From positions 1-64,000 of the forward strand of contig JAITVV010000071.1 in NCBI GenBank assembly GCA_031285625.1: 64,000 bases of DNA, in the 5' to 3' direction. Of this stretch, positions 4,361-42,516 are shown piece after piece. This stretch comes from Prevotella sp. (lineage in GTDB: Bacteria > Bacteroidota > Bacteroidia > Bacteroidales > Dysgonomonadaceae). Each line of letters opens with the position of its first letter. Position 1 is the stretch's first letter. A program made the translations under genes and the position numbers. The notes under the pieces are model-generated. The model was given only the letters and a program-made list of their open reading frames with translations. It made no database searches and was not told the origin of the DNA.

Positions 4361-7300
4361 ATGGAGGAAACCAACGAAATTATAAGCACACCTGAAGAAC
4401 AGCCTAAGAAAAAAAATATAATCAAAAGGCTTCTAAAAATTCTTCTGTACATAATTCTATCATTGATAGGACTAAATGTGCTTTTATTTATACTACTCTC
4501 TATTCCGGCTGTACAACAGAAAGTAGCCGATTTTGCAGTAAATGAATTAAAAACAAAATTAAATACCGAAATAGCCATAGAAGAGGTGCGTCTTAAGCTA
4601 TTCAATCATGCAACCCTCAAAGGCATTTATATAGAAGATCAGGCAAAAGATACACTACTGTATGCTCAATCTTTGGATGTGACTCTCAGCCCCTGGGAAT
4701 TTATAAAAAGCAATACACTGGCAATAACAAGTATCACTGCCGATGATTTTTTAATAAATGCAACCCAGAAAGACAGTATTAGTGATTTCAATTTTCAATT
4801 TATCATAGATGCATTTGCCGGAGATACTGCACAGGTTGATACTACTAAAAGCTCTCTGATAGTTAAAATAGAAGATGTAAATCTGAAAAGAGGCCGTATA
4901 AACTATGATGTTTTATCAGATTCTGTAACTCCTCATTTATTTAATGCATCCCACATATCGTTATACGATGTTACTGCAAACCTAGATTTAAACTCTATTG
5001 ATACTGACAAACTCGATATTGATTTGAAGAGTCTTTCAGTAAAAGAAAGAACTGGAATAATAATTGAAGAGTTGAAAGGCCATGTTTTCTCAGATAAATC
5101 TCAATATTGGGTCGACAATCTTTCTATTAACTTACCGAACTCACACCTGATAACAACTAATGCCAGATATAACTTATCTACAGACGAATTTGAGATCGGT
5201 ACAGAAGACACGGAAATATCCCCACAGGACTTGTTGAGCTTTCTTCCTAATCTGAAATTTCTGAAGAATAACATCACATTAAATACAAATATAAAAGGAA
5301 AATTACCACTGATCGATATCGAAAATATAAATTTCGCCTATGGCAAGGATGCAGAACTGATTGGCAAAGCATCCATTTCAAGTTATGAGAGTTATGGAAG
5401 CGCCGATATTAATCTTTCTATTGATAAATTCAAGGCTACGACCTCTGCCATCACGTCATTTGCCAAACTAGGCGATTCTACCTTTATCACCCCCGATATA
5501 CTAAGGGATATGGGAGATATATTTCTGAAAGGGAAAGTAAATGGACGATTAGATAAATTCAAGCTAGATGCAGAGGCCTGGTGCAAACAAGGGTTGATCT
5601 CTGCAGTTGCAACAGGAGGGACAGACAGTACTTTTTCTAAATATAATGTCATAGCCGATCTTAATACACAGAACTTTAATCTTGGTAAATTATTAGGAGA
5701 CACAATAGGACTTGGCCGTTTATCAGCACATATTGATTTAAGAGCAAAAGGTGAAAATGAATCTTTAATAGCGCAGGCTCAAGGCACAATCAACGCAATA
5801 GACTATGAACAGGATACATTTAGAAATATCCCTTTTGATGCATATTATAATCCATCTGAAATGGGGCTTACAACAAATGCGAACCTTCCGATAGGAAAAG
5901 TATATGCAAAAGCAAGTATGTCACAAGCCAGGGTTCCGGATATTAATGTACAGCTCAGAGTAGACACATTACATGTAGATCATTTCTATAAAGATGAGAA
6001 CTGGATCAATCCACGCCTTTCATTAGTTATGAATGGAAATATTAAAGGCTTGGATATAGACAATATGACAGGGAAGGCAACTATTGACAGTCTTGACCTG
6101 CATGATGCCAATTTTAGCTTCAAGCCCGGTAAATTCACTCTGGAAGCAGGTAGAAAAGCAGAAAATGATAAGTTTATAAGCCTGACATCTTCTCTCATCA
6201 CTGCAAACATTGCCGGACAATATACATTTATGTCACTTGCTGATGAGTTTACCAACCTGATGCACAACTATCTTCCTGCTGTCTTCCAGCAAACCAAACG
6301 GGTAAAGAATGATCAGAACAACTTCTCATTCAGCCTGGCTGCCAATAATACAGAAGAACTTGGTAAAATACTATCCTTGCCCGTAGATGTTATTCTTCCT
6401 GCAAACATAACCGGACGTACAAATACAATTGATAAACAGATCACAGCTAAGGGAAATATTCCGCATATCCGGTATGGGGAATACGATATAAAAAATACGG
6501 TTATTGATATAGCTAATGTCGATTCGGCTTTTAATATATCATTGGTAAGCGGAGTATTGATGGAAAACGGAGTATATAATTTATCTCTGAATATAAACGG
6601 TGCAGACAATATGATGCATGCCATTACTAAAATAACGAGTGATAAAACAAATATAAATATCGATGGAGGTATAGAGGCACTGGCACAATTCAGCCTGGAT
6701 GAAAAGGATGAACTCATATCATCCCTGAAAGTAGAACCATCGGACATTATGATTGATAAACTGGCTCTTAATCTATTGCCTGCCGAAGTCTGGAACAAAG
6801 GGAAACGGACAGAGTTGCATAATGTAGGTTTAGGCGTGAACAAGAAAAAATATTTCAGTATGGATGGAGTCATCTCCGACCAGAATACAGATAGTTTAAG
6901 TGCATCATTTACCCATGCCGAAATAGGGGATCTATTGGAAGCTTTTGATATAAAAAACATCCGAGGATGTATTCATGGGGATGTATTGCTTACCAATATA
7001 TTAGGCCAACCGGAACTGTATACACGGAACTTGGAGATGGCAGACATTGTGATATTTGGAGATACCTTGGGCACAATGAATATCGACAGTCAATGGAGTG
7101 ATGAGTTTGGAGGTGTACGCATGGATGCTGCCTTGCATAAGGGTGACCAAAGTCTGGCGGAAATAGACGGGACAGTATATACCAATCAGGATTCACTGGA
7201 TCTTCAGTTACGGATGCAGCAAATGCCATTGAAATGGATGCAACCTTTTGTCGCCGACATGCTGAATAAGGTTGATGGCAGCCTCAGTACCAACCTGATG

Positions 7301-32187: not shown

Positions 32188-32409
32188 ATGTACTGGACTT
32201 TAGAATTAGCATCAAAATTAGAAGATGCACCATGGCCTGCAACAAAAGAAGAGTTGATTGACTATGCCCAACGTTCGGGTGCACCTCTTGAAGTTATAGA
32301 AAACTTACAGGAGATAGAGGATGAAGATGAGATTTTCGATACTATCGAAGACATCTGGCCTGACTATCCTAGTAAAGAAGATTTCTTCTTCAACGAGGAC
32401 GAGTATTAG
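32188..32409 (+). CDS. DUF2795-family small acidic protein (integration target)
   Basis: MYWTLELASKLEDAPWPATKEELIDYA...FFFNEDEY; its 3' end is duplicated at 42413-42436. Confidence 0.85.
   Translation: MYWTLELASKLEDAPWPATKEELIDYAQRSGAPLEVIENLQEIEDEDEIFDTIEDIWPDYPSKEDFFFNEDEY
32386..32407 (+). repeat. attL
   Basis: TTCTTCAACGAGGACGAGTATT; 21/22 identical to 42413-42434. Confidence 0.9.
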
Positions 32410-32453
32410 AGGTAAAAAATTGTAAAATGCTTTAAAATAAAGCGTATATACAG

Positions 32454-32492
32454 GAGATTAGGGTAACAAATAATTACTTTAATCTCTTTTTT
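32454..32492 (+). terminator. Element-borne terminator-like hairpin resembling the host terminator
   Basis: GAGATTAGGGTAA..TTACTTTAATCTC-TTTTTT; compare 42471-42516. Confidence 0.6.
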
Positions 32493-32567
32493 ATGCCTTT
32501 TTTTACTATATTTGTTACCCTAAACGCAACCCTATAAAGGGTAATATTCCTAAAAAAATACATAGTA

Positions 32568-33908
32568 ATGGGTAGAAAGAAAGCTGACAGACCAACAGGA
32601 AAGTTTAAACTTCGTACAGACCAAAGCAAAGACGATGGTAAATATACCTTATATTTAGAATATAGTCTGAATAGAAAATTTGCAAAAACTACCACAGAAT
32701 ATAAATTTAAGCCTTCAGAATGGGATGATAAGAATCAAAAAGTAAAAGGAACTGTTCCAAACTATAATCGTATCAATGCTCAATTATCCAAGCTTAAAAA
32801 TGGCATTGATGCAGCTATTATTGATTATCTTGATAGAACAAAGGGTAACACAAAGAGAAGGTTAACTATTGACATCTTACGAAGTATTGTCCAGCGAAAA
32901 CCAATTACGACATTAGGCAAAGTAGAAAACAACGAATTTTTCGCTATGGCTAATAAAATTCAAGAAGATGAATATTCACATGGAAAAAATTCTTATAGCC
33001 TTTATAAGAATAAGCTAAATCAGATAGATATATTCAAAAAGTTTGTTTCTAAAAAGATAGGTGAGCAATTTATTAATTGTGATGACATTGATATTGACCT
33101 GATAAATGATTATATTAAATGGCGTATAGATAGGGGAAATAAACCTGTTACTATTAATAAAGCTCTCGTCCCAATCAATCAAACTCTAAAAATAGCAAGT
33201 ATTAAAGGCTTTGCTAATGCAGAGATGGCATATTTAATATCAAAATCGTATCTACCTATCAAGACTAAATTGAAAGATGAAGAAGACGAGGAAGATGATG
33301 TAAGATATTTAACAGAGGACCAGATAAAATCGTTATTAGAATTATATCCAAAATTGCATATTAGAACAAAAGATTATATAGATATGTTTCTTTTTGTAAT
33401 TCATACAGGATTACGAGTTTCTGATATAATAACTTTGCGATGGATAAATATTGATATTGAGAAAAAAGAACTGAATAAGATACTATATAAGGGAGACATT
33501 AAACTATCGACACCCCTAACAGCACCAGCTATAAAGATTTTAAATAAATGGAAAGAACGCAATCTAAATGATGTTTTTGTTTTTGACATCCTGCCTTCTG
33601 ATTTTAATTTACAAGACGTTCCATTACTTGACAAAATGCGTATCAATAAAAATCGTTCAATTCTTACATCATTAAATGAAGTCGGTAATAAATTGGAGTT
33701 GGCTTTCAAAATGGGTATGCACGTAGGTAGGCATACATTTGCAGTTTTAGCCTTAAACAGAGAAGTAAACTTGCATATTTTAAGTCAGTTATTGGGACAT
33801 TCAAGTATATTAGTTACAGAAAAAGTGTATGCTAAATTCTTGCCTAAAACAATAAAAGAAGAAGTTGAAACCAAACTCGATTTCAACTTCCTTCCTGATG
33901 GATATTAA
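32568..33908 (+). CDS. Tyrosine integrase with N-terminal arm-binding domain
   Basis: TGLRVSD (R), HVGRHTF (HxxR), LLGHS, TEKVY (Y); N-terminal 'PSEWD' Bacteroidetes arm-binding-type domain. Confidence 0.95.
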   Translation: MGRKKADRPTGKFKLRTDQSKDDGKYTLYLEYSLNRKFAKTTTEYKFKPSEWDDKNQKVKGTVPNYNRINAQLSKLKNGIDAAIIDYLDRTKGNTKRRLTIDILRSIVQRKPITTLGKVENNEFFAMANKIQEDEYSHGKNSYSLYKNKLNQIDIFKKFVSKKIGEQFINCDDIDIDLINDYIKWRIDRGNKPVTINKALVPINQTLKIASIKGFANAEMAYLISKSYLPIKTKLKDEEDEEDDVRYLTEDQIKSLLELYPKLHIRTKDYIDMFLFVIHTGLRVSDIITLRWINIDIEKKELNKILYKGDIKLSTPLTAPAIKILNKWKERNLNDVFVFDILPSDFNLQDVPLLDKMRINKNRSILTSLNEVGNKLELAFKMGMHVGRHTFAVLALNREVNLHILSQLLGHSSILVTEKVYAKFLPKTIKEEVETKLDFNFLPDGY

Positions 33909-33921
33909 CCAACATATTATT

Positions 33922-34221
33922 TCAGTCATAAGCATAAGCTTCTAAACGATTCTTTTGATAAAAGTACATTATATCCTCATAACTGTATAAAAATTTATCA
34001 CCAACCTGAGTATAGGGTAAATAACCCTCGTCACGATACTTCTTTATCCAATTTTGACCGACCCCTAAAAGTTCGGGAAGGTCTTTATTGGTGTAAAAAG
34101 GTTTTACAATATTATTTTTAGTGTGTTCGATTAGAGTAGAACATAGGTTCTTTAAATCTTTTATCTCTTGTTTCAATTCGTTTAGTTCATCGCTATGAAC
34201 TGCAATCAAAGTGCTCATCAT
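33922..34221 (-). CDS. HTH_17/MerR-like excisionase-type protein
   Basis: YTNKDLPELLGVGQNWIKKYRDEGYLPYTQVGDKFLY; convergent with the integrase. Confidence 0.8.
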   Translation of the reverse strand: MMSTLIAVHSDELNELKQEIKDLKNLCSTLIEHTKNNIVKPFYTNKDLPELLGVGQNWIKKYRDEGYLPYTQVGDKFLYSYEDIMYFYQKNRLEAYAYD

Positions 34222-34583
34222 TCTGAATTTTAGCAACTTTATTTTTCATGGAATTTCACAATCCCAAGCTATACTTAAAATCATTGTACTTCTATTATTG
34301 AAGTAACCAAAACAAATATACCTTTTTTATTTTTGAAAAACAAAAGAGATTTTAACAAAATTTGAAATGGCATATTTATGGCATCCTTAAATCTATTGAA
34401 CTACTTTATCCCCATTGACCCATCCCTCATATATAAGGGGATTATGTTGTGAATGAATAAATTCTCAAAAAAATTATGTTTAAGAAGGTCATCTATATTG
34501 AACTTTCAAAAATATTGTAATATTTATTTATATAGACTTTGATAGCTCTATGATATGTATAATAATTTAATAAAAATTAAAGT

Positions 34584-34769
34584 ATGAATAAGAGAATTTA
34601 CAGAGAAGCGGATGAGATGACTAAGTACAAAATGAGTTTAAGCAAATCTAATTCATTAAATCCTAACTATGGGAAACCAAGAGATGAGGAAACTAAACAA
34701 AAGATTTCGGATAGTATGAAAAAGTATTGGTCAGAAGTCCCATTTAAAAATGACTTAAATAAAAAATGA
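34584..34769 (+). CDS. Stand-alone NUMOD3-motif DNA-binding peptide
   Basis: Two NUMOD3-like repeats: DEMTKYKMSLSK and NPNYGKPRDEETKQKISDSMK. Confidence 0.75.
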   Translation: MNKRIYREADEMTKYKMSLSKSNSLNPNYGKPRDEETKQKISDSMKKYWSEVPFKNDLNKK

Positions 34770-34782
34770 AATTTTAGAATTG

Positions 34783-34814
34783 GATGTTGCCGGATACGGC
34801 AACATCTTTATTTT
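34783..34814 (+). terminator. Intrinsic terminator after the NUMOD3 gene
   Basis: GATGTTGCCG-GATA-CGGCAACATC followed by TTTATTTT. Confidence 0.75.
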
Positions 34815-34976
34815 ATATGAATAATATTTTTCATTAACTATTGATTATTTATTTTCAAATTCTATTTTTTATAAAGAAGTTTCATTCTCTCTATCAAGAA
34901 GGGAAATATGTAGCCTGTGGACTACACCACTAATTAGTAAAGTTCACTTGAAGAATAAGAAGTTTAATATTAAAAA

Positions 34977-35996
34977 ATGAATAGTTATGAAAATAAACAT
35001 TTAAAATTTGATACAGTAAAAATTAGAACAAATAAAGAATATTTAAAAGATACATTTATTAAATTCAATCCAAAATATAAATCAAATGGAGAAATAATAA
35101 ATAAATATTATAATTCAAAAGATGATGATAGACTTATTCCCTATAATTTATATATTGGAATTAGTGATAAATCATTAACATTAGAATTTTCATCTAAGAT
35201 ATTATTAGATGATTATCCGAAGCTTATAACAAAAGATACATTCAAACAATGTTTAGAGAATATCAACCAACTTGATATTTGCGCCCTCAATGCTGATTCT
35301 ATTGCAAATGATTGTTATTTTACGAAAGTTCATGTTACCAATGATATAAAATATCCATTCACTGATAATGTATTAGATAGCCTTAATTCAAATGTCAATG
35401 ATTATAGACGTTACCAATGGGAACATTATCGAAAAGACGGCATACGCTTTAAAAAGGATGTAAAATCAATATCCTGCAAAGAGAGTATTGTTATGTACAA
35501 TAAAGAAAAGGAAATTATAAACAATGTAGATTTTCTTTCAATTCTCAGCAAGCCGAATGAAGTAATTGATTATTTTGATGGGGTCACACGTTTTGAAATG
35601 GAGTTGGATAAACCAAAGAAAATATGTGAAGCTCTGAATATTGATACCACCCATATAAGTAAAGTGTTCAATTCAAAGGAAAACCCCTTACTTGTTCAGT
35701 TTAATAAAATTTTTGGAGTAGGAGAGATTAAAAACAGACAATACATTGCTAACTATGAAACCTACGCTATGGATGCTATAATTGAGAAACACAACGGTGA
35801 CATCAAGAAGATAGAACAGGAAATGAAAGACCTGCATGTTTACAGTTCTAATTCTCGTAATGGCTTATCGGAAAGAATGAAGAAGATTAAAGCTCTTATA
35901 GAACAACGAAACGAGAGATTGTATAATTCCAGAGGAATATTGACAGAAATTAGAGAAAAATTAGGCGAAAAAGCACCTATTCCAGCTCAACTATGA
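34977..35996 (+). CDS. Putative rolling-circle replication initiator/relaxase (Rep_trans / gpII-X-like)
   Basis: FDTVKI, TKVHVTND, MYNKEKE (YxK candidate catalytic Tyr) and VTRFEMEL (RxE), in the motif order of Rep_trans/gpII proteins. Confidence 0.6.
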   Translation: MNSYENKHLKFDTVKIRTNKEYLKDTFIKFNPKYKSNGEIINKYYNSKDDDRLIPYNLYIGISDKSLTLEFSSKILLDDYPKLITKDTFKQCLENINQLDICALNADSIANDCYFTKVHVTNDIKYPFTDNVLDSLNSNVNDYRRYQWEHYRKDGIRFKKDVKSISCKESIVMYNKEKEIINNVDFLSILSKPNEVIDYFDGVTRFEMELDKPKKICEALNIDTTHISKVFNSKENPLLVQFNKIFGVGEIKNRQYIANYETYAMDAIIEKHNGDIKKIEQEMKDLHVYSSNSRNGLSERMKKIKALIEQRNERLYNSRGILTEIREKLGEKAPIPAQL

Positions 35997-36089
35997 CACG
36001 CTCAGACTATCATTTTTAGCTTTGAAACCTACTGTTTACGTTGATTTTGGTGTGTGTCGCTTGTAATAGATTATCATGCATGTTTATAA

Positions 36090-36134
36090 AAGAAATAATG
36101 AGGTAGAAAAAAAATCTACCTCATTATTTTCTTT
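36090..36134. terminator. Bidirectional terminator
   Basis: AAATAATGAGGTAGA-A7-TCTACCTCATTATTT between convergent rep and lipoprotein genes. Confidence 0.8.
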
Positions 36135-36145
36135 ATATTTTTATA

Positions 36146-37084
36146 TTATTGTTTATTCCTATCTATTTTATTTAAAATAAACTTTCTGCCTATATTTGTT
36201 TGGTTTGAGCCAGTACCTCTATCATAATAATCATATACCATCTCAATTTTATTTGTTGTCATAGATATTATTTTATAATGGGCTGTAATTTCATCATATG
36301 TAATTTTATTAGATAATTTAAAATAAAATCCATTATTAGTAAAACTTACACTTATACTATGAAATGATATATCAAATTTATCATCGTAATGACTTATCAT
36401 TGAATTATCTATGTATGTTGTGTTAAATCTTAAATAAAATGGATTACTTTCATATTCTTGAAAATTTATAGACCCTTCAAAAAAACCATCTTGTTTACAT
36501 TCCCAAAAAATAGGTCCTTTATCATTAGGGATATGTAATATTTTCGCAATATTTTCCTTATTTATTTGAACAATTTCGGGCACTTCTATTTCGGGAGTTT
36601 CAGGTAGTGTAATTTCACCTTTATACTCGTATTCGTTTTTAAAGTTAAGTGTAAGTGCATTCAGGTTATCATTGTACATATTTTTAATCTTCGCATCATC
36701 AGTAAATGATTCACTTTTGACAATAGTATTGTTATTCAATAGATTAAAAGTAACCTTTGTAGCATATTTGATATAAGTGTAATATACATCGTTAATAGGT
36801 ATTGTTGTACCCTCATCTATATTTGCTTCAATGACGACTTGTACATTATCATTGAACAGCAAGTTAAGATAGGTTGTAACAAAAGTGCTTTTTAGTTGTG
36901 ATTTAGCAATGATAGCCGATTCAACTTTAAGGTCTTTGTTGTTGAAGTTTACGCCATTGTTTGAGATTGCGCCAGTTGTTGTAGGTACAATCGGGTTTGG
37001 GTCAGTATCGTTGTTGTCATCGCTACTACAAGAATAGAATAAGGTCGTTGCCATCAGACACAATGTGAATAATAGTTTTTTCAT
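36146..37084 (-). CDS. Lipoprotein of unknown function (element cargo)
   Basis: MKKLLF..LFYSC lipobox followed by acidic SSDDNND export-type signal; Pro-rich linker. Confidence 0.8.
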   Translation of the reverse strand: MKKLLFTLCLMATTLFYSCSSDDNNDTDPNPIVPTTTGAISNNGVNFNNKDLKVESAIIAKSQLKSTFVTTYLNLLFNDNVQVVIEANIDEGTTIPINDVYYTYIKYATKVTFNLLNNNTIVKSESFTDDAKIKNMYNDNLNALTLNFKNEYEYKGEITLPETPEIEVPEIVQINKENIAKILHIPNDKGPIFWECKQDGFFEGSINFQEYESNPFYLRFNTTYIDNSMISHYDDKFDISFHSISVSFTNNGFYFKLSNKITYDEITAHYKIISMTTNKIEMVYDYYDRGTGSNQTNIGRKFILNKIDRNKQ

Positions 37085-37275
37085 TCTCTGACCTCCTCTC
37101 TAATTGCGTCTTTTACACTTTTTTCAAGTGTTTCTAAATCGTAGTTAGAATCTACAATAGAACCATTCTTTACAACTTGATATAAGTTTTCACACTTATA
37201 GATGTCTGCAAATTTTTCTTTTTTGATAAAAAAAGTTTTTACCAAAATACCAGAGAATACATTTTTGTTCATCAT
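37081..37275 (-). CDS. Small hypothetical protein coupled to the lipoprotein gene
   Basis: 64 aa; ATGA overlap with the lipoprotein start; follows a structured leader. Confidence 0.55.
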   Translation of the reverse strand: MMNKNVFSGILVKTFFIKKEKFADIYKCENLYQVVKNGSIVDSNYDLETLEKSVKDAIREEVRE

Positions 37276-37330
37276 GAAATACGTTCAATTTTGCTCATCA
37301 GCTCCAAATGTGCAGTTTTGTAAATAGAAA

Positions 37331-37479
37331 ACGTGGAGACTGCTAACTTACTCGCCTCGAGGTCTTGGTCACCCTGCAACAGAATAAGTCGCAGCTCCAC
37401 GTCTATAAAATATAAAGACATGGAGCGATTGACTTACTACCCTGTTGCATGAAAGTTACCAAGTTTCGAGTGCGGGTAA
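37331..37479 (-). ncRNA. Candidate structured leader/antisense RNA with two mutually exclusive folds
   Basis: 37331-37353 is complementary to 37382-37402; 37348-37403 is also complementary (with bulges) to 37417-37479. Confidence 0.55.
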
Positions 37480-37646
37480 TATTAAACGCTTTCGTTTTTT
37501 TTAATAAGTCCTTCTATCAAACCATCTCTATGGTATTTGATTGAATTATGATACAAAGATTGATATTTTATTTAAGCCCTGCAAATTATTTCGAATAAGA
37601 TAAATATAATATTCTTTAGTCCAGATAGTTAATTGTTATTATTTAT

Positions 37647-37682
37647 TACACATTTATTAAATTGATGTTCAATAAATGTGTA
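37647..37682. repeat. 12-bp perfect inverted repeat (candidate res subsite/operator)
   Basis: TACACATTTATT-N12-AATAAATGTGTA just upstream of TATATTTG (37701-37708) and the recombinase ATG. Confidence 0.6.
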
Positions 37683-37730
37683 TTTAATGAAAATAATAGT
37701 TATATTTGTTAAGTATTAAACTTTTAACCA

Positions 37731-38411
37731 ATGGAAGCTAAAAAATATACTTGTTATTATAGAGTGTCTACAAAAAAACAAGGCAAATCAGGATTAGGTC
37801 TTGATGCACAAGAAACAATCTGTAAAAACTACGTAGATGGTCAGAAAGGTATAATCATAAATTCTTTCGTTGAAGTTGAAAGTGGTAAAAATGATAACAG
37901 GGAAAAACTGCATACTGCTATTGCTGAATGTAAGCAAACTAACAGTACTCTGTTAATTGCCAAACTTGATAGGTTATCGAGAAGTGTTGAATTTATTTTT
38001 AGTTTGAAAAATTCAGGTATTAATTTTACTTGTGTTGACCTACCTGAACTCAATACCATGACCTTGGGTATCTTTGCAACCTTTGCACAGAGCGAAAGAG
38101 AGCGTATAAGTGAGAGAATCACAAATGCACTCGCTGAAAAGAAAAAAAAGGGTATTAAACTTGGTAAACCTGAAAACTTACTGAACAACTTTGATAAAGC
38201 ATACAGTAATAGTTTAGCTACTCGACAAGGCAATGCAGTAAACAATGAGAACAACAAAAAAGCAGGTCTTTTGATTGTGTCTTTGCGTGATGGTGGTAAA
38301 ACATGGAATGAGATAACCCAAACTTTAAATGATAATGGTTTTAAAACTCGCAGGGGTGGTGTGTTTGGTATAACTCAGGTGGTGAGGCTGTTCAATAGAT
38401 ATTACTCATAA
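37731..38411 (+). CDS. Serine recombinase (resolvase/invertase domain plus short C-terminal DNA-binding domain)
   Basis: YYRVSTKKQ (catalytic Ser), ESGK, KLDRLSR, ERERISER, GIKLG; C-terminal 'LNDNGFKTRRGG'. Confidence 0.92.
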   Translation: MEAKKYTCYYRVSTKKQGKSGLGLDAQETICKNYVDGQKGIIINSFVEVESGKNDNREKLHTAIAECKQTNSTLLIAKLDRLSRSVEFIFSLKNSGINFTCVDLPELNTMTLGIFATFAQSERERISERITNALAEKKKKGIKLGKPENLLNNFDKAYSNSLATRQGNAVNNENNKKAGLLIVSLRDGGKTWNEITQTLNDNGFKTRRGGVFGITQVVRLFNRYYS

Positions 38412-38520
38412 ATTATTGACATATAAAACATTAAGTTTTATCAGATTGTTTATCTATAAGAGAAAAAGAAGCAGATAATCGCATGATTATTGATTAATAA
38501 TTGTATTTTTGCTAAGGAAT

Positions 38521-41500
38521 ATGAAACAAAATGTGTCGCTAAACAAGTTTCTGATTCAGTTAGGATTAGAAAAGGTGGTCTTCTTTAAGGACGAAGAAGG
38601 AGTATACTCCTCTGTTCTACACTTTGACATACAGAATAAACTCAAACTAATCAGTCCTGACGCAATCTATATATTCAATAATCAACCTTTAATTTTATTT
38701 TTCGATTTAACTGATAATACAGACGATAAACGAGAGGATGATATTCACAAAAAAGTATGGTCTTTTGATAATTCTCCGATAGCTTTTATTATAAAAAGTA
38801 ATGAAATAAAAGTATACAATGCACTGAATTATATAAAGAACGAGAATCGCTTAGAAACGATTAACTTAACAAGTGATGAAATCATTAATAAATTCTCTTT
38901 TTGGAATTTACAAAGCAGCAATGTTTGGAATTGGTTTCAAGAAAAATATATTGAAACCATACAAAAAAAGGAAACTAAAAAACGTGTAAACGAAAGGCTT
39001 TTTCAGAATATCAGAGATGTGAGAAATGCTTTGATAGATAAGAACAATGACCCTGAGGGAAGTATTCCAAACTCTCTTATTCTTAGATTGATATTTATAA
39101 GATACTTAATAGATAGAAATATTGAAATTGGTTCAGAGTTTATTGATGGGTGTGATACTTATTCAAGAAGATTAAGTTTCAGTAAACTATTACAAGACCC
39201 TGACAAGCTATCTCGGTTATTTGTAAAATTAAATGATAGATTTAACGGTGTTCTATTCAAAGGTGTTGATATAAAGCTAACTACTACACAAGCTGAAAGT
39301 CTATCTGATATCTTCAATGGTGAAGTACCAAAGAAAAACTCATTATTTTATGGCAGTGATTTCTATTTTGAGATATTTGATTTTTCTATAATTCCTGTTG
39401 AAGTAATTTCAGGAATATATGAATCTTTGATTGACCCTGAAACAAGAAATCTACAATCAGCAGTATATACCCCATCTTTTTTAGTTGAATATATTTTAAA
39501 TGATACTATTGATGTTTTCCTAAATGAGAACAATACATCGGAGTGTAAAATATTCGAAGTTGCTGTTGGCTCAGGAATTTTCCTTGTTCAGTCTTTGAGA
39601 AGAATGATAGAAAAGGAAATTGAATTAAAAGGAAATTTAGACAAAGAAGCTTTTAGTGAACGTATTAGAGACATAGCAAAACAAAATTTATACGGTGTTG
39701 ACATCAATAAGGAAGCATTAAAAGTAACATGTTTTTCAATATATATTGCTCTATTAGATTATCAAGAACCTAAAAATATCTATAAATATAAATTTCCTAA
39801 TCTATTGGGAGAAAACTTATTTGAAGCTAATTTTTTTGACACAAAGAATGAGTTTAATCAAGTAATAAATAATGCAAGACCCCAATATATATTGGGTAAT
39901 CCACCTTGGAAAAGTAATAAAGATGATTACCATATAGAATGGTTAAAGTCTAATAAAAAGACTGTTGGAAGATTTGAAATTGCACAATCCTTTCTTCTGA
40001 GGACAAAAGATTTTATGAATCTCGATACCAAAGTTGCATTAATTATTACGAGTACCATTTTCTATAATGTGTCTAAAACAACAAGAGCATTCAAGAATGA
40101 ATTTTTATCAACATACTGTATTAGTAAATTCTTTGACTTGTCCCCTGTCAGACGATTAATATTTGAAGAAAAAGATAGTCCTGCAAGCGTTGTATATTAT
40201 AAATTATCTGAGAATAATGATTACATTAATAATGTAATAGACCATCAATCTGTTAAAATCAACTATTTTCTTAAACACTTTAAAATGTTGGTCATTGAAA
40301 AGTATGACAAAAAAAAGATTTTCCAACGATATTTTATTGAATATGATTGGATGTTTAAAGTTGCTTTATATGGTAATACCTTAGATTTTGTAACCATTAA
40401 TAAAATAGTCGAAAATAAATCAAAAATTAATGATTACATTGATAATAAAACAATATTTAGTGGTGATGGTATCCTAAAAGGAACACCCAAGCCAACCCCT
40501 TTCTCTTTTCTTATTAATTTACCTATTATAGAAAACGAAGAGGTTAAGTCGTATTATACGAATGTCAATATTGAAAAAACAATGACATTAGATGATACAT
40601 ATTTGGAAAGTGGACGAAAATTAGAATTATTTAAGGGAGAACACATATATTTAAAAAGTCAGACTTTAAATGAATCTGATATTGTAGTTTCCTATAATAA
40701 TCAAACCGCCGTTAATCGACATGATGTGATTACGATAACGTCTGAAAATGAAATTGACAAACTGAAAGAAATTTACGCTTTGCTAATCTCAGATATTCAT
40801 ACCTATTATCAATTCCTAACATCTTCTGCATGGGGAGTTTCAACAAGACCTGCAATAAGATTAAAAGAATATAAAAACTTCCCTTGTGTCACATTAAGCA
40901 CACAACATCAGCAAAAGTTAACATCACTAATAAATGATTTTTTTGAAAATTTCATACTCTACTATAGCGATGAGATAAGGTCTGAAACTCTTCCTGTAAA
41001 TAAGAATATATTAAAGAACATAAATAAACTTATTAATGAATTATACAGGATAAATGAAGCTGAAAAGGACTTGATTAATTATGTTCTAAATGTATCGAGA
41101 TATCAATTTCAAGAAAGTAAGCAAGATTTAATAATAGATTTTACACATACGAATAAGAACGATTATAGAAACAAAGAAACTGTCTTAAAGCAGTATGCAG
41201 AAGTGTTCCTACGAGAGATTGAAGACATATATGATAATGAATATATACAAGCAGAAATATATTCATTACATCATTTTGTTGCGGTAAACTTTGTATTTCA
41301 TTCAGACCCGATTAAGGAGAGAATAATATATCAAAAGAATGCAAATATTATTGAATCATTAGAAAAATTGGGAAATCTAAGTATCTCTCAGATTGCAAGT
41401 GTAACTGACCCTACAAAGAACCTATTTATACAAAAAGATATAAAAGGTTTTGAAGATAATTCATTTTATATAATCAAACCTAATGAATATAAATGTTGGC

Positions 41501-41592
41501 ATCGTGCTATGGCATGGTATGATGTTGCTGAGTTTAAAGCGAAGATTGAAGAAGCTGAGTTAGAATATCTAAACAGTAATGAAGATGAGTGA
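38521..41592 (+). CDS. Large N6-adenine DNA methyltransferase (gamma class, Eco57I/type IIG-like)
   Basis: ISGIYE, AVYTP, FEVAVGSGIFL (motif I), YGVDIN, GNPPW (motif IV); TRD-like C-terminal half. Confidence 0.88.
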   Translation: MKQNVSLNKFLIQLGLEKVVFFKDEEGVYSSVLHFDIQNKLKLISPDAIYIFNNQPLILFFDLTDNTDDKREDDIHKKVWSFDNSPIAFIIKSNEIKVYNALNYIKNENRLETINLTSDEIINKFSFWNLQSSNVWNWFQEKYIETIQKKETKKRVNERLFQNIRDVRNALIDKNNDPEGSIPNSLILRLIFIRYLIDRNIEIGSEFIDGCDTYSRRLSFSKLLQDPDKLSRLFVKLNDRFNGVLFKGVDIKLTTTQAESLSDIFNGEVPKKNSLFYGSDFYFEIFDFSIIPVEVISGIYESLIDPETRNLQSAVYTPSFLVEYILNDTIDVFLNENNTSECKIFEVAVGSGIFLVQSLRRMIEKEIELKGNLDKEAFSERIRDIAKQNLYGVDINKEALKVTCFSIYIALLDYQEPKNIYKYKFPNLLGENLFEANFFDTKNEFNQVINNARPQYILGNPPWKSNKDDYHIEWLKSNKKTVGRFEIAQSFLLRTKDFMNLDTKVALIITSTIFYNVSKTTRAFKNEFLSTYCISKFFDLSPVRRLIFEEKDSPASVVYYKLSENNDYINNVIDHQSVKINYFLKHFKMLVIEKYDKKKIFQRYFIEYDWMFKVALYGNTLDFVTINKIVENKSKINDYIDNKTIFSGDGILKGTPKPTPFSFLINLPIIENEEVKSYYTNVNIEKTMTLDDTYLESGRKLELFKGEHIYLKSQTLNESDIVVSYNNQTAVNRHDVITITSENEIDKLKEIYALLISDIHTYYQFLTSSAWGVSTRPAIRLKEYKNFPCVTLSTQHQQKLTSLINDFFENFILYYSDEIRSETLPVNKNILKNINKLINELYRINEAEKDLINYVLNVSRYQFQESKQDLIIDFTHTNKNDYRNKETVLKQYAEVFLREIEDIYDNEYIQAEIYSLHHFVAVNFVFHSDPIKERIIYQKNANIIESLEKLGNLSISQIASVTDPTKNLFIQKDIKGFEDNSFYIIKPNEYKCWHRAMAWYDVAEFKAKIEEAELEYLNSNEDE

Positions 41593-42310
41593 AGCTTCAA
41601 ACTTTATTTCTAAGCGTAAACAGCCTCTTTCTCTTAGGCAAAAGAATATCCAAAACATACTTTGGTATATGTTAGAATGTTATAGCATAATCCTAAATGA
41701 AGGAAAAACATACTCATTATCAGATATAAAAAAAAGTAACGTAAAACCTGAAAATTATCTCAGAAATAAATTAGTTGATGAATATTTAAGAAAATATACT
41801 CATCTTTTCAAAGAGAAATTTAAGACTGAATATATATTTTTTGATAAAGACACAGAGGAAACATATATTGATGAAAAAGGTAGTGAATCTACTGATAAAA
41901 TCGACATTTATATAAGAAATAAAGCTTTACAAGATTATTGGTCAAATAAGCCAAATGTTTACTATGCAGTGGAATGTAAAAGAATAAAGGAGTTGTCGGA
42001 TACTCAGAAATACATAAATGAAGATACTGTTGGCAAGTTCATAGAAAGAAAGCATACTGAATTTAGACAACCTATTGAAGGACAGCTAGCTTTTATTGAA
42101 AATTCAGATATAAGTCCGCTTAATATAGTAGATGACATAAATAAAAAACTTTGTAAGAACACCAATACAGAATCTCTTTTATCATCAATCGAAGTGCATG
42201 AAATGCAAAAATGTTGTTTTATATCTAAACATAATCGCAGTTTTAATATCAAAAGTAAGTTTAGTATCTATCATTTACTATTAGATTATTCAGATATTGT
42301 GATAAATTGA
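41579..42310 (+). CDS. Putative PD-(D/E)XK endonuclease
   Basis: KIDIYI...AVECKRI gives a D...ExK signature; overlaps the MTase stop. Confidence 0.6.
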   Translation: MKMSEASNFISKRKQPLSLRQKNIQNILWYMLECYSIILNEGKTYSLSDIKKSNVKPENYLRNKLVDEYLRKYTHLFKEKFKTEYIFFDKDTEETYIDEKGSESTDKIDIYIRNKALQDYWSNKPNVYYAVECKRIKELSDTQKYINEDTVGKFIERKHTEFRQPIEGQLAFIENSDISPLNIVDDINKKLCKNTNTESLLSSIEVHEMQKCCFISKHNRSFNIKSKFSIYHLLLDYSDIVIN

Positions 42311-42412
42311 GGGACGTAAAGTAAGCATTTTCAAAATGTTATAAGTTTCACTAAAATATACCCTTAAAATAATTAATATATTTATAATAAGCAAATTAAT
42401 TGTTAAAATAAA

Positions 42413-42434
42413 TTCTTCAACGAGGATGAGTATT
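42413..42434 (+). repeat. attR (displaced original 3' end of the DUF2795 gene)
   Basis: TTCTTCAACGAGGATGAGTATT(GA) encodes FFNEDEY-stop. Confidence 0.9.
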
Positions 42435-42470: not shown

Positions 42471-42516
42471 AAAAAAGAGATTAGGGTAATTAATAAATTA
42501 CCCTAATCTCTTTTTT
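42471..42516. terminator. Bidirectional host terminator (DUF2795/uvrA)
   Basis: AAAAAAGAGATTAGGGTAATT-AATA-AATTACCCTAATCTCTTTTTT. Confidence 0.88.

Follow-up and report, generated by a model that had tools for sequence, protein, structure and literature searches.

NBU1, NBU2 and Tn4555, elements of approximately 10–12 kb, share one type of integrase and target 3' gene ends; NBU1 encodes a primase as well. The element described here occupies positions 32386–42434 (approximately 10 kb) of a 64,000-nucleotide stretch of DNA from a Dysgonomonas-like bacterium (contig JAITVV010000071.1, assembly GCA_031285625.1), referred to below as the window. It resembles NBU1, NBU2 and Tn4555 in having a Bacteroidetes-type tyrosine integrase with an arm-binding N-terminus and no mating-pore genes. 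According to passages of a 2017 review (PMC5704250), those three are mobilised in trans by integrative and conjugative elements (ICEs) of Bacteroidetes, of the CTnDOT type, and encode canonical MobP-type relaxases. The few integrative and mobilisable elements (IMEs) known in Bacteroidetes are all presented there as canonical, with MobP or MobV relaxases. In contrast, the element in the window has no match to a relaxase or primase family, and carries a candidate initiator with a predicted Rep_trans fold (Rep), a NUMOD3 partner protein and a small serine recombinase.

The IMEs of streptococci offer a second point of comparison, since passages of the same review (PMC5704250) relate their relaxases to rolling-circle initiators (Rep_trans/MobT, Rep_2 and others). 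Like the element in the window, they combine a tyrosine or serine integrase with an initiator of the rolling-circle replication (RCR) type, insert at the 3' ends of conserved genes, have exchangeable modules, and carry restriction–modification or toxin–antitoxin cargo. As described in those passages (PMC5704250), they belong to Firmicutes, possess PF02486 or other Rep families proper, and in many cases have their own coupling protein, whereas the element considered here is found in Bacteroidales-like hosts, has a Rep family that matches PF05144 weakly, and has no coupling protein. A literature search, with subscription journals and supplements outside its scope, returned no described IME or other integrative element of Bacteroidota with a Rep_trans- or Phage_CRI-type protein.

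The element is rated here as a member of a widespread Bacteroidales family for which no published name was found, an IME-like element with an RCR-type initiator being in itself a known kind. We consider it rather probable that it is an intact element, integrated by its integrase (Int) and an excisionase-like protein (Xis), that does not conjugate by itself and depends on Rep-driven rolling-circle replication, on transfer fed to a helper, or on both.

An element integrated at the end of a DUF2795 gene

The interval 32386–42434 is a site-specifically integrated element whose target is the 3' end of a DUF2795 gene. It is bounded by a 22-nt direct repeat, TTCTTCAACGAGGA(C/T)GAGTATT, the two copies of which (attL core, 32386–32407; attR core, 42413–42434; both plus strand) are identical at 21 of 22 positions. 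Even with up to three mismatches allowed, the repeat search finds just these two copies in the window, where 100 shuffles give an expectation of 0.00, and the same two are the sole copies in the whole 4.84-Mb assembly. GC content is 0.25–0.33 inside the repeats, compared with 0.36–0.39 in the left flank and 0.40–0.42 in the right flank. Nine intact open reading frames (ORFs), all open and full length relative to their families, fill the interval. An earlier sequence-only reading of the window had proposed att direct repeats and nine ORFs here, and the repeat search, the drop in GC and the ORF functions bear this out.

The target is an intact 73-aa DUF2795 gene (32188–32409), and the attL core is its 3' end, comprising its last 22 nt. 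Directly beyond this core, an element-borne arm (P', 32408–32493, plus strand) supplies DUF2795 with a new stop codon and terminator hairpin in place of its own, with a terminator-like site at 32452–32488. Beyond the attR core lies the chromosomal terminator hairpin (42471–42516), which has perfect 21-nt arms, stands just before the end of uvrA and is shared with that gene. Approximately 85 nt beyond each core are also alike (76% identity over 107 nt) because the element brings its own copy of the end of the target gene and its terminator. The DUF2795 gene therefore remains whole, and the anatomy of the locus shows site-specific integration into the end of a gene that is thereby rebuilt.

The integrase gene (446 aa; 32568–33908, plus strand) matches Pfam Phage_integrase (1.3e-19), Arm-DNA-bind_5 (1.3e-12) and Phage_int_SAM_5 (1.6e-7). 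The latter two domains together mark a Bacteroidetes-type integrase, as in IMEs of the NBU/Tn4555 type, and the motifs TGLR, GRHT, LGHSS and VYAKF can be read by eye in the translation. Int is an IntDOT-type tyrosine integrase. The Xis-like protein (104 aa; 33922–34236, minus strand) is an HTH_17 protein (Pfam 9.6e-7) with a weak match to a PHROG excisionase (1.5e-5). The cores and domain matches together support the earlier proposal of a site-specific integrative element with Int and Xis. With regard to the general definition of an IME, the element has its own site-specific recombinase and flanking att repeats, no mating-pore genes of its own were matched, and Rep with the motif at 34891–34930, both described below, is a candidate for the relaxase and oriT that a helper would use. 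Nor does any of the nine ORFs match capsid, terminase, type IV secretion system, coupling-protein or relaxase families in Pfam, NCBIfam, PHROGs or PADLOC, in agreement with the list of absences, Mob genes among them, drawn up in the sequence-only reading.

The DUF2795 region is present in 39 of 41 relatives, and site occupancy was assessed in 14 genomes of the genus over 6–15 kb downstream of DUF2795. All 14 have a single copy of the core and no int, rep or other element genes at the site, save for one relic, and the site is unoccupied in all 14. Directly after the DUF2795 stop codon, three of the closest relatives have a hairpin that is homologous to that at 42471–42516. The relic, in genome G019, lies right after DUF2795 and consists of a KAP NTPase gene and the final 36 codons of a related recombinase gene.

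What follows DUF2795 varies by species, being gltX with a Kdo transferase gene, mutS, or ATPase islands. Since the flanks differ among relatives, and since gltX and the Kdo transferase gene lie on another contig of this genome, the position of uvrA beside DUF2795 is specific to this genome. The sequence-only reading had looked to relatives for a contiguous DUF2795–uvrA locus. None of the 14 has one, as rearrangement has made the right flank differ from species to species; uvrA lies 4 kb away in one relative and is otherwise arranged in a second. More generally, the region downstream of DUF2795 is a hotspot for breakpoints and islands in the genus, and one genome (G022) holds an AAA_15/AAA_21 ATPase island there.

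A sister element is inserted at the same site, between the same 22-bp cores, in D. macrotermitis DSM 27370 (locus L032). It is 8.2 kb long, and the order of genes (cobalamin adenosyltransferase, DUF2795, int, xis, numod3, rep, recombinase) is the same. Its attL arm is nearly identical to the P' arm in the window. At the DNA level, the two loci are 81.6% identical between the left flank and the end of rep and 73% identical over the leader and recombinase, with no identity over either cargo stretch. At the protein level, Xis is 99% identical, NUMOD3 95%, Rep 92% and the small recombinase 86%, compared with 64% for Int (7480–8871 of L032 against 32568–33908 of the window) and 77% for the flanking cobalamin adenosyltransferase. 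This makes the backbone a mosaic that postdates the divergence of its hosts.

The same backbone with variable cargo, which the sequence-only reading had advised looking for, thus occurs in D. macrotermitis, where the contents of both cargo slots differ. Slot 1 there carries an OMP_b-brl gene and a 177-aa ORF, and slot 2 a gene for a TIR_2 protein. In two other relatives, slot 1 holds OMP_b-brl and Lipocalin_4.

The Rep protein, its candidate origin and the wider family

Rep (339 aa; 34977–35996, plus strand) is a candidate rolling-circle initiator or relaxase with a predicted Rep_trans or gene II-like fold. Its AlphaFold model has a pLDDT of 92 and a pTM of 0.86. In a Foldseek search with this model, a check that had been suggested from the sequence, RepDE ranks first (4cwe, E 2.7e-5; 4cwc, E 2.1e-4), followed by TATA-box binding proteins (TBPs), while RepSTK1 (4cij) aligns with a TM score of 0.38. 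VIA-align gives Z scores of 8.7 for 4cwc, 8.6 for 4cij and 8.5 for 4cwe over 203–209 residues, compared with 6.4 for the best TBP. The best structural matches are thus initiators of the pT181 Rep_trans type (RepDE, 4CWC/4CWE; RepSTK1, 4CIJ). Rep differs from these in sequence, with just 10–16% identity, and in being chromosomally integrated; there is also no sequence match to PDB chains, as a profile of 77 Rep relatives against PDB sequences returned chance rows (E ≥0.34).

Relatives of Rep are numerous, with 348 at E ≤0.001 in 90% clusters and 369 among 50% representatives. The nearest named relatives are from Dysgonomonas, and some from Bacteroides fragilis are annotated as ‘phage/plasmid replication protein’ or ‘Replication-associated protein G2P N-terminal’. 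Pfam Phage_CRI (PF05144) is the sole Pfam replication family that the relatives match. It is matched by 26 of 77 aligned sequences (best E 4.8e-8), and in one case the score of 23.3 bits exceeds the cut-off of 21.7. This is the family of the gene II protein of Ff-type phages. It is matched by relatives and not by Rep of the window, and the element has no phage morphogenesis genes.

Four residues are invariant in the 77 Rep sequences, namely Y174, K176, E179 and E207, the first of these within a Y-x-K-x-x-E motif. Y174, the invariant tyrosine, may correspond in position to the catalytic tyrosine of Rep_trans proteins. Outside Pfam, Rep has a weak match to a PHROG ‘replication protein’ (E 0.0018) and nothing meaningful in NCBIfam or PADLOC. 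On the strength of the model, we assign Rep the Rep_trans (TBP-like) fold and regard it as a distant initiator of the gene II-like kind, with family membership at the level of fold and superfamily. The earlier designation of an RCR Rep of the Rep_trans family therefore holds for the fold, where RepDE and RepSTK1 come out on top, and fails for sequence, where neither PF02486 nor PF05144 is matched.

Upstream of rep lies a gene for a 61-aa NUMOD3 DNA-binding protein (34584–34769, plus strand; Pfam NUMOD3 1.2e-8), followed by a terminator (34782–34807, plus strand; terminator scan). Across the 33 loci with a Rep homolog, a sample that depends on the contigs returned by the scans, a NUMOD3 homolog is found 259–495 nt upstream of rep in 18. 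Cross-locus alignment also reveals a conserved origin-like motif (34891–34930, plus strand), which in the window contains a small hairpin (34908–34927). It belongs to a block common to six Dysgonomonas loci that ends approximately 50 nt before the start of rep.

The 29-nt majority form of this block, TATCAAAAGGGGAAAATGTAGCCTGTAGA, was tested with up to eight mismatches within 220 nt upstream of rep. It occurs 45–90 nt upstream of rep in 22 of the 33 loci, including those of Dysgonomonas, Bacteroides, Prevotella, Alloprevotella, Paludibacter, Alistipes and others. Elsewhere in the same 33 loci, there are no matches in 1.03 million positions. Shifted forms can be seen by eye in two further loci, and one locus is cut. 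That the nucleotides are kept although the Rep proteins are just 40–50% identical points to a protein recognition site. We infer that the motif at 34891–34930 may be the site at which Rep binds and nicks, and thus a candidate origin.

The NUMOD3–rep core is spread over Bacteroidales in many genera, and the Rep loci found are confined to Bacteroidales-like genomes. The backbone had been thought unusual and unnamed; the absence of a published name agrees with this, but a core distributed across the order is not rare, and the backbone is less exotic than it had seemed. Within the genus, Rep homologs occur in 7 of 35 genomes. Most relatives have a large serine integrase in place of Int and Xis. 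In 12 of the 33 loci, rep is followed by tandem ORFs with Resolvase domains, of 206–234 aa and 502–540 aa, and in one more this arrangement is disrupted by an insertion sequence.

A more distant Rep clade (L052, L054, L058 and L061) is associated, in varying combinations, with HTH_17, a D5_N/DUF5906 primase-helicase, DUF6371, a tyrosine integrase and WYL. One of these four loci carries ArdA, and none of them has the 29-nt motif. The genome that holds the element also has a second, partial module at a contig end (C6:92739–96004, locus L015), consisting of a copy of the structured leader described below, a 206-aa resolvase and a large serine recombinase. This resolvase shares 87% identity with its counterpart in Dysgonomonas sp. 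BGC7. No second Rep homolog was found in the assembly.

Cargo and the structured leader

Downstream of rep, the element carries two cargo slots separated by a gene for a small serine recombinase. The recombinase (226 aa; 37731–38411, plus strand) matches Pfam Resolvase (1.3e-24) and a PHROG DNA invertase (7e-30), and the active-site serine motif YRVSTKKQ, with its YRVST core, can be read in the translation. Upstream of the gene are a promoter-like box, TATATTTG, at approximately 37707 and a palindrome (37632–37697) that is conserved only with D. macrotermitis and may be an operator or res site.

Slot 2 holds a Type IIG restriction–methylation enzyme (1027 aa; 38509–41592, plus strand) and a partner, p243 (243 aa; 41579–42310, plus strand), the gene for which overlaps that of the enzyme by 14 nt. 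The enzyme matches PADLOC REase_MTase_IIG (PDLC03603) at 4.1e-127, with residues 47–1013 aligned end to end to 44–1009 of the 1016 in the model, and Pfam Eco57I and MmeI_Mtase. It has an NPPW motif, and a nuclease motif read by eye only. As in the class generally, a single chain of approximately 1000 aa combines nuclease, gamma-class N6A methyltransferase and specificity parts.

The p243 protein is a PD-(D/E)XK-like candidate nuclease. In 31 sequences, D109 and E132-C-K134 never vary, and the model (pLDDT 86) yields a VIA-wide list led by BglII (Z 7.5), Card1, BstYI, BamHI, OkrAI, SwaI and McrC. These top matches are nearly all restriction endonucleases, though at Z ≤7.5. Foldseek gave no match to the model at E ≤0.001, and a p243 profile against PDB sequences gave chance rows only. 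A p243 gene directly follows a full-length homolog of the IIG enzyme (50–66% identity) at six of six copies in five Bacteroidota genomes, which were reached via 5 of 65 p243 loci.

The match to the model aligns this system with MmeI/BpuSI-like Type IIG enzymes, from which it differs by the p243-type partner. We know of no Type IIG system of which a 240-aa PD-(D/E)XK-like partner is part. Enzyme and partner together look like a two-gene module, unlike a single-protein Type IIG system. The region labelled ‘MTase-nuclease’ from sequence is thus resolved into a full-length Type IIG enzyme and a separate, conserved nuclease-like partner. Judged by these matches, the cargo of slot 2 is defence-like, as had been anticipated.

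Slot 1, which is divided from rep by a two-way terminator (36092–36130; inverted-repeat and terminator scan), contains a gene for a lipoprotein of 312 aa (36146–37084, minus strand). Its translation shows a signal peptide and a Cys followed by an acidic stretch. A 64-aa ORF, p64 (37081–37275, minus strand), overlaps its start. Neither protein belongs to a family in Pfam, NCBIfam, PHROGs or PADLOC, and Atlas look-ups of the lipoprotein and p243 gave unnamed clusters or sub-threshold scores.

A structured, rod-like leader of 175 nt (37323–37497, minus strand; model R1) lies 47 nt upstream of p64. The minus strand of 37276–37560 folds at –89 kcal/mol (z = –6.5). Five copies yield a rod of 61 pairs, with compensatory changes in 20, and the resulting covariance model finds 29 copies in the collected loci. 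Among these 29, 89.3% of cells are paired, compared with 41–46% in slid controls. Both partners change in 51 of 56 pairs, in an alignment that was fitted to the model and so favours it. G-U pairs are common, and the structure therefore belongs to the minus strand. The structured RNA that had been suspected ahead of the p64 and lipoprotein genes is thus real, on the evidence of both folding and covariation.

The leader is present in 33 of 35 Dysgonomonas genomes, at 1–21 copies per genome, and at least one copy at E ≤1e-5 is found in 38 of 121 genomes sampled across the order. Of 28 copies, 25 are followed on the same strand by an ORF of at least 50 aa that begins 21–161 nt downstream, and the other three are cut by the ends of their loci. 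Most of these ORFs open with a signal peptide or lipobox. R1 usually stands 40–65 nt ahead of a small gene whose product is secreted or is a lipoprotein. Further copies in the same genome lie at C6:95725–95902, C40:103–266, C52:25536–25707 and C4:2829–2997.

Rfam 15 has no match at E ≤1 that covers the R1 of the window or 12 other copies; the only row to touch part of the former, mir-1303, is below threshold and due to chance. Two identities were considered and rejected. A single-strand origin was discounted, as many R1 sites have no rep nearby and nearly all stand just upstream of an ORF. So was the FopS small RNA (sRNA) family, which is deposited in Rfam and is described as a single-stranded 5' stretch with a terminator hairpin (PMC11697453). 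R1 may correspond to an unnamed sRNA family of B. thetaiotaomicron (BTnc020 and others) that the same source places beside transposases and invertases (PMC11697453). Many R1 copies are near contig ends, and two copies (G046:C33:161–337 and 6781–6957) face outwards around a 6.4-kb stretch with an IS1595-type transposase, so that R1 may be tied to mobile DNA.

Mechanism, alternatives and significance

The components described above suggest a life cycle. The IntDOT-type integrase, aided by the HTH_17 Xis-like protein, recombines the 22-bp cores, and the two would also excise the element as a circle. Rep would then nick the conserved motif approximately 85 nt upstream of its own gene and start rolling-circle synthesis, with the NUMOD3 protein, whose gene nearly always precedes rep, as an accessory DNA binder at the origin. 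Rolling-circle synthesis could keep the circle in the cell, deliver one strand into the mating pore of a CTnDOT-type conjugative element resident in the same cell, or both. The small serine recombinase would most likely resolve multimers or control the neighbouring region. Slot 1, after rep, holds a surface-protein cassette behind the conserved structured leader, and slot 2, after the recombinase, holds defence genes, here the Type IIG enzyme and its PD-(D/E)XK-like partner.

Candidate helpers are encoded in the same genome. CTnDOT-type TraJ and TraM genes lie side by side on one contig (C55:22304–25024), and two TraG-D_C coupling-protein genes are found on others (C9:652–987 and C48:7192–7524). 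Transfer by a helper is plausible on this basis.

Several results weigh against this proposal of an intact, Rep-driven and helper-dependent element. At E ≤0.01, Rep itself has no match among Pfam families of replication proteins or relaxases, PF02486 and PF05144 included, and PF02486 (Rep_trans) is matched at that threshold by none of its 77 relatives. The fold scores are moderate (TM 0.28–0.38, Z <9). No Rep homolog was found in 72,556 plasmid records (PLSDB) or 50,697 phage records, and autonomous replication by this Rep family is therefore without an example there. Circular overlap was found at none of five whole-contig Rep loci. The small recombinase of the window and that of relatives with a serine integrase are not orthologues (BLASTP E 0.13) and share position alone, so that its role is not transferable from those relatives. 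The right flank with uvrA is not syntenic with that of relatives, and the empty sites come from other species, with no conspecific genome among them. Finally, excision, the circle, the nick and transfer are predictions, and so are the rolling-circle replication and mobilisation in trans that the sequence-only reading put forward.

The leading alternative, though we think it unlikely, is an integrative rolling-circle plasmid and nothing more. Rep would replicate the excised circle, for copy-up or maintenance, and spread would occur through routes such as vesicles, transformation or transduction instead of conjugation. The Rep family does resemble replication initiators, both in the Phage_CRI matches of its relatives and in the RepDE/RepSTK1 fold, and the known MOBT relaxases are PF02486 proteins (PMC5704250), a family that this Rep family does not match. 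Moreover, the element has no coupling protein, no relaxase family and, save for the rep-proximal motif, no feature like an origin of transfer (oriT). Against this reading, no free plasmid with this Rep was found in PLSDB. There is also no obvious separate single-strand origin, given that R1 occurs at many places that lack rep, and spread over many Bacteroidales genera calls for an efficient route of transfer.

It is improbable that the element is a fixed genomic island, no longer mobile, in which the recombination and replication genes are decaying relics. Relics do exist at this site, such as the 36 recombinase codons and KAP NTPase gene after DUF2795 in G019, and the activity of the present copy is itself read from its genes. 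All nine ORFs are nevertheless open and full length, the att cores differ at one of 22 positions, and the 92–99% identity of Xis, NUMOD3 and Rep across species, against 77% for the flanking host gene, points to recent spread. Still less credible is an origin in a filamentous (inovirus-like) prophage, of which the element would be a remnant or satellite, with Rep as a gene II homolog and packaging by a helper inovirus: the Phage_CRI (gene II N-terminal) similarity of the Rep family and the small size and Int–Xis integration of the element would suit it, but no Zot/pI family is matched in the element or in the 94%-complete genome, the phage records hold no match to Rep, the eight Rep-homolog loci in IMG/VR are all on contigs of 21–67 kb, which are not inovirus-sized, and coat or morphogenesis genes occur in none of 12 annotated neighbourhoods of relatives.

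A broader proposal can be put forward, tentatively and at something short of even chances. The element would belong to an order-wide family of Bacteroidales hitchhikers that use NUMOD3, an enzyme of gene II/Rep_trans fold and a 29-nt origin for replication and mobilisation, with interchangeable integration modules (a tyrosine Int plus Xis, or a large serine integrase) and two cargo slots, one for a surface cassette expressed via a new, multi-copy RNA leader and the other for defence. This would be the first non-canonical IME family, of the RCR-initiator type, in Bacteroidota.

Small helper-dependent elements carry much of the defence and surface-variation cargo that moves among the Bacteroidales of the gut, including that of insects, yet the 2017 review describes only IMEs with canonical relaxases (the NBU and Tn4555 types) for this phylum (PMC5704250). 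The R1 leader is a separate lead, being strongly covarying, without an Rfam match and widespread in Dysgonomonas. Should the proposal hold, the combination of NUMOD3, rep and the 29-nt motif would provide a simple handle for finding such elements in genomes, and their new pairs of integrase and att site, together with a compact replicon, could be adapted as genetic tools.

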